A stretch of DNA of 64,000 nucleotides, taken from Eledone cirrhosa. Lineage: Eukaryota. The stretch covers positions 26,722,001-26,786,000 of the forward strand of contig OZ024760.1 in NCBI GenBank assembly GCA_964016885.1, read 5' to 3'. Made by a program: the position numbers and the translations under genes. The notes beneath the pieces were generated by a model. The model ran no database searches. It had not been told where the DNA came from and was given only the letters and a program-made list of their open reading frames with translations. The stretch's first letter is position 1; every line of letters begins with the position of its first letter. Positions 1,121 through 59,920 of this stretch are shown here, one piece after another.

Positions 1121-1299
1121 AGGAACGAGTAGGACCCCGACGGCTGAGCTCAAGCCGTTTCGACGGCTAATTCTGGACTGAGTCCAGAATTAGCCGTCGA
1201 AATTAGCTGTCGTTCCTATTACCCACTCTACTACCCTAAGTACTGAGTACTTTGGTGCGTTATGGTCCACCTGGTTCCTTACCACATTTCCTTCGTTAT
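1121..1299. mobile_element. Fold-back element family A (HHR 3' half plus ~80-nt tail) in (TA)n
   Basis: The arm reads GAAA-CGGCT-tgagctc-AGCCG-TC-GGGGTC on the minus strand. The tail tattacccactctact...ttcgt is shared with copies at 6966, 7481, 10550, 38826, 57241 and 59741. Confidence 0.75.
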
Positions 1300-1412
1300 A
1301 TATATATATATATGAATTATTTCCGGTAAAGGAAGGGTAAAGGTATGGAGAGTGCTCTATGTACGCTACAGAGCTATTTAATTATGTAATAAACAACATA
1401 AGACAATCATTC

Positions 1413-1479
1413 CATTTACCAAAGGTTTCACGAAGACAGACAAGATCAACACAAACGTATGAAAGCGCTCATCAGAATG
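1413..1479 (-). ncRNA. Type I hammerhead ribozyme (intact arm of an inverted pair)
   Basis: CAUU-CUGAUGA-GCG...CGU-GAAA-CC uuu GG-UA/AAUG: all core nucleotides present, GUA site. Confidence 0.8.
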
Positions 1480-1511
1480 AAAAATTTAAATTAAATTCAG
1501 ATTAAATTTTT

Positions 1512-1578
1512 CATTCTGATGAGCAATTTCAGACGTCTGTGTTGAGCTCGTCTGTCTTCGTGAAACCTTTGGAAAATG
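1512..1578 (+). ncRNA. Hammerhead ribozyme, inverted partner with mutated cleavage triplet
   Basis: CAUU-CUGAUGA-GC...GU-GAAA-CCUUUGG-AA-AAUG, so GAA replaces GUA. Lies within the inverted repeat ~1380-1612. Confidence 0.65.
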
Positions 1579-2094
1579 GAATAATTTCTTATGTTGTTTA
1601 TTACATAACTATATATATTGTTATATTTAGGGATGGTCATGTGACCAATATTGCTAATAAAAAACCACACGCACCATATACTTTTCACTTTTTCACTTCA
1701 TTTGTGTTACTAGCTATTCGTTAGTTTGGCAAAGTTATTTCGTCACACGTTCTGTGACCTCCTCAATGATTATTTGTTCTCTTATAATATACATTTTTTT
1801 TTTTTTTATTATATTTCTAGACCAACGACTGTGCTGTGGCGTTGAAATGAAATGAGCTCAGATCAGGCAAGATGTTGGCATAGCTGAAGTCTTTAATATC
1901 AGCTGTGCCGCGTGTTGCCATCTTTGGGCTCGTGTTGACTGCAGATACATTCATTCGTCAAACGAACATACGATTCTGAAGAAGACTACGTCAATATCGA
2001 ACAAGATAGAAGAGGGATACTTGCCAAGGGAAGACAACTGTGAAGAAATGAACCAAATAATGTATGTATGGATGTATGTATGTATGTATGTATG

Positions 2095-2815
2095 GACTCT
2101 CTCAGGGGAAGATGCTCGGTATCAGGTGGTACAAGCATGTGAGTGATGTTGAGGTCCTTGAGAGAAGTGAGTGTCAGAGCATTGAAAGTATCATCCACCA
2201 ACGACGTTTGCTATGGACCGGACACATCTGCAGAATGGAGGACGATCGAATCCCAAAACAACTTTTGTATGGCGAGCTTTGTAAAGATAAAATACCACCT
2301 CACAAGCCAAAGCACCGATTCAAAGATTGTGTGAAGGACTCATTGAAAAAATAACTGGTTTCATGGTGGCTGACTGGGAGATAGAAGCTCTTGAAATAAA
2401 AAATTTGGCGTGGAATTGTGAATGATGGGGTCCATAATTTTGAGGACGGACGCATAGAGCACGAGAAGATCAAACAGGATGTGCGTAAGAAATGCCCAGG
2501 TGTATCTCTCGAAACGATCGGTGTCTCCATTGAATTGGTGTGCCCTGAGTGTGGAAAGATTTGCCTGAGCAAATCTGGTCTCAGGAGCCACAGTCGCAGC
2601 CATGTTCAGAGAGAACCAGGGAACTATGATTTCCACGGTATTGTGGAGGTTCACAGGCCACCTGATGCAAGACCTGGGGCCAGGGGGATCCATAGTTGTC
2701 GTCAATGTGCCAATGAGTGCAAGTCTCTAGCAGCCTTGAAAAGCCATATCCGAGCGTCACACATCTGAACCTGACAAGCGATTACATTACTCTTAGCAGA
2801 GTTTTCAGCCATCAT
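2095..2815 (+). pseudogene. RTE-clade LINE 3' fragment (RT C-terminus plus two C2H2 fingers), disrupted
   Basis: RRLLWTGHICRMEDDRIPKQLLYGEL...RFKDCVKDSLK, then CPECGKICLSKSGLRSHSRSH and CRQCANECKSLAALKSHIRASH. Ends gcagagttttcagccatc(atgt)n. Confidence 0.85.
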
Positions 2816-2879
2816 GTATGTACGTATGTATGAGTGTGTGTATGTATGTCTGCCTGTATGTATGTATGTATGTTTGTTT

Positions 2880-3076
2880 CTCTTTCTCTTAATTTCGTGT
2901 ACATTTTTGACCGGCCACCTTCCTTTGAATCGCAAGAATGTTTTGCAAATTTTGAAGGTGCCAGCTACCGCAGCCATTTCTAGTCTATGAATTCGGGAGC
3001 TGCGCTCTTTGTCCACAAATCCAAGTTCAGTCATACTTTGGTCCAAGCGGGATGGTATATATCATGTAGTCCAATA
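2880..3076 (-). pseudogene. 3' fragment of an RLE-type (R4/Dong-like) non-LTR retrotransposon
   Basis: LEMAAVAGTFKICKTFLRF resembles the C-terminus LQVQSINGTVKICRTFQKF of the element at 19258-21628. Confidence 0.6.
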
Positions 3077-56668: not shown

Positions 56669-56696
56669 CAATATAAACAGTTTTATATATTTATAT

Positions 56697-57217
56697 ATAT
56701 TTACTTATTGTTCCACAATGCTTCAAGTAAACTTCAATACTCTCCTATATATATATATATATATATATATATATATATATATATAGGAGAGTATTGAAGT
56801 TTACTTGAAGCATTGTGGAACAATAAGTAAATATCTTTAAGTCGTTTGGAAGCCTCGACAATGCAAATGGGTAAATCTCCGGGTAACAAGGTCCGGTGGT
56901 GGAGAGAGAGATGTAAGTGAGTGTACGTTGAGATGCGTGGTGTGTATAAGATGTGTGAGATGTGTAGAATGAAGGGAAGAGTATAAAGGATAAAAATAAA
57001 AATAACAACACAAGAGAGAGTTACCTTGGGAGAGATTTAATAGTCCCTGGGACTATTAAATCTCTCCCAAGGTAACTCTACACATCTCACACATCTCATA
57101 CACGCCACGCATCTCAACGTACACCCACTTACATCTCTCTCTCCACCACCGGACCTTGTTACCCGGAGATTTACCCATTTGCATTGTCGAGGCTTCCAAA
57201 CGACTTAAAGATATTTA
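56697..57217. mobile_element. Fold-back element family J plus detached tail copy
   Basis: 56826-57048 is inverted against 57049-57217 (centre tccctggga). 56697-56746 is the reverse complement of 56783-56832. No HHR core found. Confidence 0.7.
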
Positions 57218-57240
57218 TATATATATATATATATATATAT

Positions 57241-57400
57241 AACGAAGGAGGTGTGGTAAAGAACCAGATGGACCATAACGCACCAGAGTACTCAATACTT
57301 AGGTTAGTAGAGTGGGTAATAGGAAAATGTTTAACCACGATGGCAGAGTTCAAGCCGTTTCGATGGCTTGAGCTCTGCCGTCGGGGTTAAACATTTTCCT
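57241..57400. mobile_element. Fold-back element family A
   Basis: Same arms and end points as 10550-10741. Confidence 0.75.
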
Positions 57401-57764
57401 ATCTATATGTGTGTGTGTGTGTGTTAAAATAACAGATTAAAGTTTAAGCAAAGAATCAATGGGTTAACGGGATCTTCCTTTGCTCTATGGTTTTTATATA
57501 TTTATATATATATATATATATATATAATCCTTATCGAACCCTCTTCGGATCTTACTTAGTCTTCACATTTATTATTATTACTATATATATATATATATAT
57601 ATATATATATATATATTGGATGTAATGAAAACAAAGGGAAAATTCTCCAAAGTGGGGGACTTCCGAGGTTAGGTTTGCCTTTCATCCTTACGGGTTCGAT
57701 AAAATAAAGTACCAGTAATGCACTGGGGTTGATTTAATCGACTTCCCCCTCCCTTCGTTGAAAG

Positions 57765-58223
57765 ACGCTAACATCTCGCGTATTAAATGGAGAAAGACTG
57801 TGGAAGAATGAGGGGAAAGCTGCCTTTGAGGCATCTCGAATCGCACACGAGAAAGTAAAGTGGGACGTGAGGAAGGGCATTGCTGTTGCACTTCCAGGCG
57901 GCGAGGGTCCTCCTATGGCGCTGACATGCAACGTCTGTGCGAGACTCTGCCTCAGCAAAGCTGGACTCGAAAGTCATCTTCGCAGTCATAAAGTAAGACC
58001 AGTGGTTGACTACCAGGCTACTGATAGAGATGCTACTCATCATGCTTGCCAAGCATGTGGTAGAGAATGTAAATCAGTAGGAGGGCTGAAACGACATGCA
58101 AAAGTACATGAAGTCCAACCACAGCGGGCTATTCCCAGTGAATGTTTTGGTTGCCAAATCTGTGCAAGACATTTTAGATCATTGGCTGGACTAAAAAGCC
58201 ACATTCGATCGCAACATCATTAA
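57765..58223 (+). pseudogene. RTE LINE 3' fragment with three C2H2 zinc fingers
   Basis: Homologous to 2400-2768 (RIAHEKVKWDVRK vs RIEHEKIKQDVRK). Fingers CNVC..H..H, CQAC..H...H and CQIC..H....H. Confidence 0.8.
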
Positions 58224-59740
58224 TCATTAATATATGTATATATAAGGGCGGTGAATTGGCAGTATCGGTAGGGAGTCGGGCGCCTTGCTTTCCAGCATAG
58301 TTACGTCCCTTTACGGTCTGAGTTCATATCCCGTCGAGGTTAACTTTGCCTTTCATCCTTACGGGGTCGATAAAATAAAGTACCAGTAATGTACTGGATA
58401 ATTGCTGGCCTTGTGCCTAAAGTAGAAACAATTAATATATGTATATATATATAAATATAAATTATCGAGAATCGTATTTCGGCCTATGAAATAACGAAAA
58501 ACAACCTCCGAGATGTGTAGCAAATGCTCATTGGTTCGGATGAACCAGAGCTACAACATACGTTAAAGGCCAAACACACTGAGACGATGGTTAAAACAAT
58601 CATCCGCACAGCCAAAAAAAAAACGATCAAGTAATTCGGGTCAAACAAATAAAAATATATGTGATATATATATATATATATGATATATATAAATATATGT
58701 GATATATATATATATATATATGTGTGTGTGTGTGTATATATATATCATTGTTTTTTTATTGTGCAATGACCATACAAGATAACGAGGGGGCAGCCATCAT
58801 GCATGCATGTATGTATGTATATATGTATGCGTATAAATGTTTATGTAAATGTATATGTATATGTAAGTGTATATGTGTATATATATGTGTGGATATTATG
58901 TATGTATATATATATGTGTGTATATGTATGTATGTATGTATATATATATGACTGTGTGTGTATGTATGTATATATATATGACTGTGTGTGTATGTATGTA
59001 TGTATGTATGTATATATATATGACTGTGTGTGTATATATGTGTATATATATGTGTGTGTGTATATATGTGTATGTATATATATATATGTGTATGTAGATA
59101 TATATGTATGTATATATATGTCAGATCACCAGTTGGTGCTACTGGTAACATGTATCCCAGTACAACCTGTCCCATGGTCGGGTCGTTGGCGACTAAACTG
59201 GCAACCCTATCAAAGTTTCTTGGTGAGGAGGGTGACTTAGGACATCCTGCAGGACTAAAAACAAAACCTGTCAAAGGGCAAAGAAGCTCTTAGTGTCAAT
59301 GGCCATCCAAAATCACCAGGAGAGATGACCTCTTAGCCTTTGTCAAGGCAGAATTCTAGGAGAAGGAAAACTCTGATATAACACCTGCAACTCTGATGGT
59401 ATCCTATGATGTTGACTTGTTCTTCTTTTTGGTAAATATCATCTTGGTTAAGAGAGTGGGACTGGCTTTGAGCAGTGCCTTTGCTCACTATAAAAGCTTC
59501 ACGGCACAGGCATTGCTTTATATCTGGAGATCTCTCTGCACTTGTCGTCACATGGTACCATGGGCCCAGCATTATGTGTCAATAATTGTCACAAGTGTAG
59601 TGTTTGTACCAGAGTTTTCAAGTCGCTGGCTGGACTAAAAAGTCACACTCGTTCAGCGCATCGGTAGGGGTTCTCCTACACGGATATAAAGTAGTGGCCG
59701 TACTCGAAAACGAGTTAGCAGCCACCATATATATATATAT

Positions 59741-59920
59741 AGGAAAATGTATGACCCCGTCAGCAGAGCTCAAGCCGTTTCGACGGCTATTTCTGGAGTC
59801 TAGAAATACCCGTCGAAACGGCTTGAATTCTGCCGTCAGGGTCATACATTTTCCTATTACCCACTCTACTAACCTAAGTATTGAGTACTCTGGTGTGTTA
59901 TGGTCCATCTGGTTCCTATT
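59741..59920. mobile_element. Fold-back element family A
   Basis: Palindrome aggaaaatgtatgacccc...gggtcatacattttcct plus a truncated tail. Confidence 0.75.

Follow-up and report, generated by a model that had tools for sequence, protein, structure and literature searches.

How does a retroelement come to leave behind short insertions that fold back on themselves and end, family by family, at two fixed places? The question is raised by a stretch of 64,000 nucleotides (nt) from Eledone cirrhosa (OZ024760.1:26722001-26786000, from an assembly of 3.0 Gb), in the following called the window, which is rich in (TA)n tracts and carries short inverted-repeat islands inside these tracts. Judged by their sequence, these fold-backs are insertions of Hydra-clade Penelope-like elements (PLEs) in (TA)n, truncated at the 5' end and joined head to head, and two reverse transcriptases (RTs) probably start from both cut target ends on one RNA, one at a short end site (S) and one at a long end site (L). 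The sequence between the S and L sites is called the tail, and locus labels such as L101 or L339 denote numbered loci and not long ends. Inversions in L1 have reportedly been explained by twin priming, by Ostertag and Kazazian in 2001.

Two end sites and their pairing

The insertions of families A, B and D in the window are the following (no strand assigned):

1122..1296: family A fold-back, S left, L right; L arm with an internal deletion
6966..7119: family A fold-back, S left, L right; S arm extending further upstream than the L arm
7482..7640: family A fold-back, L left, S right
10551..10741: family A fold-back, L left, S right
38827..39021: family A fold-back of another subfamily, L left (variant tgt|TA), S right
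57242..57399: family A fold-back, L left, S right
59742..59918: family A fold-back, S left; L arm interrupted before the L site
5420..5868: family B fold-back, S left, L right
36490..36856: family B fold-back, older copy, L left, S right
37687..37980: family B fold-back, L left, S right
743..1106: family D fold-back, tail of 163 nt
37518..37638: family D insertion, S arm plus L arm of ~10 nt, arms without overlap

Seven family A copies had been described as stopping at the same S end, and all seven ends lie within 1 nt of the places claimed. That the L ends follow 80 nt further at cgt|TA holds for five of the seven (1296, 7119, 7482, 10551, 57242); the end at 38827 reads tgt|TA, and the copy at 59741 has no L end, its L arm being cut at ~59918 by unrelated sequence. 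The S end at 6966 is followed by just 4 nt of TA and then by another element. The ends given for family B (5420/5868, 36490/36856, 37688/37980) hold, and so does 742/1108 in family D, where the second pair (37517/37639) has both ends but no palindrome, with an L arm of ~10 nt.

The comparison was extended to a sample taken by position (1.064 Mb: the window plus 100 ten-kb stretches, 7 contigs). Here an inverted repeat adjoins a TA tract in 177 of 1,332 inter-tract segments, and clustering groups these 177 segments into families with a family-specific tail length, ranging from 44 to 163 nt. With one real copy per family as mapping reference, arm ends followed by TA fall at S or L in 97 of 100 cases in family A and in 62 of 63 in family B, which gives the two sharp peaks that had been foreseen, and nine further families are also bimodal in end position. 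One exact S-end pattern has 23,651 matches in the genome compared with 0 for the reversed control. In both arms the 3' ends face outward. S and L are internal sites of the element, because in tandem copies the sequence continues past both of them toward the open reading frame (ORF): S falls on an internal TA, as claimed at the outset, and L likewise on a TA-like word with more element sequence beyond, a variable part of this word being retained in young family B copies. The length of the TA tracts at S and L ends shows no clear difference (medians 15 and 21).

In each of three raw Illumina runs 3,351-3,779 reads show S ends passing into (TA)n, and some opposite-strand joints are present as well. 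Among the reads placed on the window copy at 10545-10830 none spans the locus, the depth being 1-3 in the middle of the copy and zero on the flank. Depth steps in restriction site-associated DNA sequencing were left out of the evidence for the stop zone described below because they coincide with AATT sites, which are likely the cut sites of the library; contig run X1 alone shows a depth step apart from such sites.

The two ends are not combined freely. Compact family A copies, counted genome-wide by exact patterns with an arm gap of 85-115 nt, comprise 12,461 with one long and one short end (L/S), 125 L/L and at most 145 S/S, the last number being an upper bound that takes in non-family matches. 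L/S copies make up 97.9% of the total of 12,731, compared with 50% if the ends were independent, in which case ~3,170 and ~3,190 symmetric copies would be expected. The 105 classified head-to-head pairs from 11 families in the 1.064-Mb sample are 100 L/S, 3 L/L and 2 S/S (p=2.5e-24; 22 further pairs with an unclassifiable end were left out), and young long insertions with both ends in view are six L/S and one L/L in family B and about ten L/S and one L/L in family A. Single-armed insertions exist, and several seemingly single ones carry a partner arm of 7-25 nt. The original prediction had treated both ends of the cut (TA)n target as equivalent primers for complementary DNA (cDNA) synthesis. 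Its core, that both ends prime at programmed internal sites and the two cDNAs join at a variable point, is borne out, but the primers are not freely equivalent.

Templates, arm reach and junctions

Two RNA templates had been suggested for the two arms, and as a rule this does not hold, opposite arms usually carrying the same haplotype. In family B they differ at 0-3 sites in all 11 young insertions with at least 300 shared informative sites; 40 piece pairs, which are not independent, contain 9 differences where 88 are expected from other insertions. For tandem units within one arm of family B the corresponding numbers are 15 and 109, and private alleles are common to both arms in young insertions. 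In family A, opposite arms differ at 1 of 3183 sites in L339 and at 6 of 3286 in L338, compared with at least 11 and at least 14 differences for other insertions. Whether arms can come from different subfamily alleles, a check already proposed, was analyzed in compact family A copies: the classes of both arms are equal in 36 and unlike in 2 of the 38 classifiable L/S copies (of 55), with a shuffled mean of 9.8 matches, and they are equal in all 19 classifiable S/S copies (of 30) and in 17 of 23 classifiable L/L copies (of 36). By these comparisons one template is the rule and mixed templates are the minority, because arm haplotypes and subfamily classes match in most insertions.

Several points weigh against a single RNA, or against the scheme built on it below. 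The L and S arms of L336/L337 differ at 7 of 1271 sites and are no closer to each other than to other insertions, and tandem units are unlike in L336 (6/3368) and L341 (7/1707); some events therefore appear to draw on more than one template, and a rolled monomer circle does not account for every array. Unlike arms occur in 6 of 23 L/L compared with 2 of 38 L/S copies (Fisher p=0.044), several of them by one base. Two transcripts of one locus would give identical arms too, polishing of the assembly or gene conversion might make young arms appear more similar, and the young long loci were chosen as best protein matches. The strand-displacement step of our scheme is assumed, and in the accessible part of PMC11167929 the start site of an anole element is the same for both strands and has no target homology.

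Dual priming, in which two RNAs of the same locus are held by an asymmetric protein or ribozyme dimer, with copying of one starting at S and of the other at L, would account for the minority of unlike arms (L336/L337 and the 6 of 23 L/L copies) and for the usual overlap of the arms. PLE hammerhead ribozymes have been proposed to act as dimers, and we found a minimal palindromic stem III in family B and a palindromic loop in family A. However, in order to yield 97.9% L/S copies with identical arms, it needs strict same-locus pairing and strict S/L asymmetry as two extra assumptions, even though dozens of distinct intact copies coexist. Ribozyme cleavage mutants left insertion unchanged in vitro, in an assay of cleavage and not of dimerisation (PMC11167929, in its accessible part). 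A single RNA might also give rise to the overlap, provided that the first cDNA is displaced by the second enzyme, and we regard dual priming as rather unlikely.

The reach of the arms bears on another explanation, in which a single priming is followed by snap-back self-priming, or two primings at L are followed by the removal of one tail through endonuclease resolution at an internal TA (Arkhipova 2013, Craig 2021). In the accessible parts of this literature junction palindromes are attributed to self-priming and the tail to endonuclease resolution, and S does lie on a TA-like word resembling the target. Against this, the L arm stops inside the tail and has nothing in common with the S arm in 11 of 100 L/S pairs of the 1.064-Mb sample. 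Moreover, either arm may reach further: of 30 well-aligned compact family A copies (of 55), 15 have an S arm that extends further upstream, 13 an L arm that does so and 2 arms of equal reach, and in long insertions either arm, including the S arm, can be kilobases longer. The L arm of L101 contains sequence that is missing from the longer S arm. Single arms exceed two head-to-tail units in family B (L102-L103) and three in family A (L336-L337), the units being identical in B and partly unlike in A. As random later loss of a tail cannot raise the L/S share above 50%, and S and L of a relative are both RT starts in vitro according to the accessible text, such a course is improbable.

The palindrome centres of family A had been described as different in each copy and were expected to be dispersed, with microhomology at the junctions. 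A set of 30 copies, preselected for compact size, has 24 distinct junction strings, but the centres are clustered, as the stop lies at -51 to -62 (upstream of S) for 27 of the 30 S arms and for equally many L arms, and the overlap is 0-1 nt in 20 of the 30 junctions. In the unselected sample 71 of 128 family A matches stop at -60 to -51, including single arms that adjoin (TA)n; the centres of family B are more dispersed. Amplification of one ancestral palindrome in the manner of miniature inverted-repeat transposable elements (MITEs), or an assembly artefact, would fit with centres within ~12 nt and with one adjacent pair of identical copies (L161) but is very hard to maintain, given the 24 junction strings, the asymmetric ends, arms that are pieces of and continuous with autonomous PLE units, the independent divergence of the arms of old copies, and S ends running into (TA)n together with some opposite-strand joints in all three raw Illumina runs.

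The stop zone of family A contains a conserved TTAGTC word (-58), which the copy-search pattern itself required and which resembles an initiator; the zone also coincides with the apex of the long hammerhead stem II. We lean slightly towards run-off at the 5' end of the transcript over a structural pause, because Drosophila Penelope has an internal promoter. A TATA-like word ~29 nt before the stop zone, seen in one subfamily only, may hint weakly at a start site. A linear RNA from the ribozyme cut was also considered as the usual template and rejected, with 5' ends at -25 to -11 in 4 of 128 family A matches (arms below 30 nt are invisible to this search).

From its position, an RCTC..GAGY hairpin is a candidate start signal. 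It begins 7-17 nt past S in 5 of 12 families and is found past L in both families with known read-through (per-case shuffle p 0.001-0.013); beyond S, the exact pattern is absent in the other 7 of the 12. In the window it accompanies the tail of a full-length family B element:

56474..56560, minus strand: family B tail, between the S site 56561 and the L site 56474; reads through into the 5' leader and the ORF
56534..56553, minus strand: RCTC..GAGY hairpin just past the S site, candidate start signal
56445..56462, minus strand: RCTC..GAGY hairpin just past the L site, candidate start signal

The L/S pairing and the matching arms point, in our judgement with good likelihood, to programmed twin priming on one RNA over two RNAs or snap-back and endonuclease resolution, a reading that was drawn from sequence comparison. 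According to it, an endonuclease would nick both strands of (TA)n and each target 3' end would pair with a TA-like word beside a small hairpin. The enzyme at the long site would usually pass the S site by displacing the first cDNA, which leads to overlapping arms, and would sometimes halt inside the tail, which leads to arms without overlap. The two cDNA 3' ends would be joined nearly blunt, each then templating the second strand of the other. Many short family A copies would likely result from run-off at the RNA 5' end or from a strong pause 51-62 nt upstream of S, and multi-unit arms could derive from circular or tandem read-through RNA. More tentatively, programmed twin priming could be the normal integration mode of Hydra-clade PLEs, with two hairpins each placing one subunit of an RT dimer at a TA alignment word in a telomerase-like manner, convoy copying of one RNA by strand displacement, and cDNAs that prime each other's second strands. 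If true, this alone would explain the tail, the inverted pseudo-long terminal repeats (pLTRs), the junction palindromes and the tandem arrays.

Elements and other features of the window

The full-length element in the window consists of:

52640..56698, minus strand: full-length young family B Hydra-clade PLE, one unit of ~3.9-4.0 kb plus ~137 nt; 3' end is an S end in (TA)n
54210..56423, minus strand: ORF of 737 amino acids (aa) of family B, telomerase-like reverse transcriptase with a C-terminal GIY-YIG-type motif
56605..56670, minus strand: minimal type I hammerhead motif in the upstream pLTR, core 56654-56660, read by eye; inferred cut ~50 nt upstream of S

Family B represents the terminal repeat of this element, whose 737-aa ORF has 61 scored full-length matches with 96-100% identity, of which 54 contain no stop. 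Family A represents the terminal repeat of another autonomous element with a 3.54-kb unit and a 717-aa ORF, the two proteins sharing 41% identity. Among the matches listed for the 737-aa protein are 178 homologs at 30-41% identity, and those assigned to a species come from Argonauta hians. Pfam gave nothing relevant for the 737-aa ORF or four homologs, and a PDB sequence profile of the protein gave a weak match to a retron RT alone (E 0.006). Its alignment-based model reached a predicted local distance difference test score of 86.8, with TERT as the top three Foldseek PDB matches, and the single-sequence model a score of 31. A YRDD motif is present in the RT proteins, and both show the Hydra-clade motifs (RWK-like as RWR, DKT, a CxCX5C linker, CxxC and CxH) without CCHH and without an N-terminal endonuclease (EN); GIY-YIG was found as a motif match only, at residues 615-641 (B) and 591-617 (A). 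The characters of EN+ PLEs are present, with a telomerase-related RT in a single ORF, the GIY-YIG motif, tandem pLTRs, an inverted 5'-truncated copy and a tail, as is the (TA)n insertion of the Hydra clade.

The candidate hammerhead of family B has, by eye, a canonical CUGAUGA/GAAA core. Family A cores are variant, with U3-A8 in 19 of 48 long arms and C3 with A8 in 29; U3-A8 belongs to a young subfamily and the mismatched C3 with A8 to another (e.g. L195:1640-1647, L341), and the C3/A8 hammerhead may be inactive. No hammerhead is among the Rfam matches listed (150 of 318), and the minimum-energy fold did not yield the ribozyme fold. Elsewhere, the arms of two separate family B insertions (L109:6804 and L119:6793) halt at the same GA/TA-rich position of the 3' region. 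Locus L161:269-668 consists of two identical tandem family A fold-backs with a short TA tract between them, a local duplication after insertion.

Fold-backs of other families in the window are (no strand assigned):

1314..1609: family F5 fold-back, L/S, tail of 68 nt
7659..7829: family F3 fold-back, S/L
10298..10510: family F9 fold-back, L/S, tail of 66 nt
43459..43676: family F11 fold-back, S/L
46477..46948: family F11 fold-back, S/L
56786..57215: family C fold-back, L/S, tail of 44 nt

A further fold-back family (cluster 7) lies at 6577-6961 and 9388-10163. Two tail-only pieces, 10236-10277 and 56706-56766, lie opposite the L end of an adjacent fold-back belonging to their own family, with (TA)n in between, and form inverted repeats of 100% and 97% identity with it. 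The former has a 6-nt stub beside it near 10210, and the latter adjoins the 5' end of the full-length family B element; 52640-56766 may be one chimeric family-B-plus-C insertion. Both pieces possibly reflect extra abortive priming in the same event. Apart from PLEs, the window contains a mir-31 precursor at 1854-1932 on the plus strand (Rfam 57.6 bits, gathering score 51), which is likely a genuine host microRNA gene, and a near-complete 5S rRNA copy at 37152-37268 on the plus strand, which begins right after a (TA)n tract and is possibly a retro-copy. Fragments resembling long interspersed nuclear elements at 27071-27805 (minus strand), ~2100-2770 and 57762-58223 (plus strand) include a 244-aa open frame, of RTE type by eye, and C2H2 zinc-finger-like tails.

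Comparison with known systems

PLEs are the closest retroelement relatives of telomerase, and how their tandem and inverted insertions with a one-sided tail arise is listed by Craig 2021 as a task still ahead and was not settled by Frangieh 2024; here and below, statements on published work refer to the accessible parts of the papers. With a young and intact family of high copy number, a defined target, two mapped starts and 98% pairing, it becomes directly testable whether priming uses one RNA or two. In addition, the short copies, of which family A alone has tens of thousands, can pass for MITEs or microRNA hairpins. The new part is the near-obligate L/S coupling with matching arms, as two fixed ends were already known. 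The novelty claimed originally was overstated, since the literature already describes the tail, the inverted pLTR, palindromes at junctions, the targeting of (TA)n and two RT start sites, both strands being extended; for L1, the two-RNA idea appears under the name 'dual priming' in Meyer et al. (2010, PMC2837659). A literature search, largely without subscription papers or supplements, revealed no quantified L/S coupling, arm-haplotype test or twin priming of PLEs, and the accessible parts of a 2026 retrozyme preprint, of PMC7229834 and of an octopus repeat annotation do not address end pairing.

Among Hydra-clade elements (Craig et al. 2021, PMC8557442) we find the same RWK-like, DKT, CxCX5C, CxxC and CxH motifs, no CCHH, (TA)n insertion, a hammerhead in the pLTR (a candidate motif in our elements), partial tandems, an inverted 5'-truncated copy and often a tail at one end. 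Their units are generally below 3 kb compared with 3.5-4.0 kb here, their tails measure 30-40 nt compared with 44-163 nt, and the frequency of the one-sided tail, near-obligate in our elements, is not quantified there.

The Poseidon_Ac protein nicks and extends both target strands in vitro, two internal RT starts bound a tail near the pLTR-ORF junction, and a dimer is predicted (Frangieh et al. 2024, PMC11167929), all of which resembles our elements. In contrast, its starts lie inside the ORF without target homology or strand bias, whereas here TA-like words upstream of the ORF are used and the ends are coupled; the origin of the inverted arm is not addressed in the accessible text.

Studies on PLE hammerheads describe minimal or variant type I hammerheads in pLTRs and inverted pairs 100-700 bp apart (Cervera and de la Pena 2014, PMC4209133; 2020, PMC7229834), and the 2014 paper put forward circles as templates of copies longer than one unit. 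The paired L/S ends are not accounted for in these texts, and some arrays here have unlike units. Adineta vaga elements and Drosophila virilis Penelope share variable head-to-head inverted pLTRs, junction palindromes, an optional one-sided tail of 31-34 bp and a promoter in the repeat (PMC3846280, PMC2377424); their inversions were explained as self-priming on an antisense template, which is contradicted by the non-overlapping arms found here.

Finally, twin or dual priming of L1 likewise starts two cDNAs at two target ends and joins them in opposite orientations, the template being a single RNA in the twin form and a pair of RNAs in the dual form. L1 uses an opportunistic second site and its arms lack overlap (PMC2837659), whereas in our elements both sites are fixed, the arms mostly overlap and this is the usual mode. 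With the 11 of 100 L/S pairs alone being non-overlapping, the L1 form itself was rejected, and the insertion of these PLEs would work like twin priming but not in the form known from L1.

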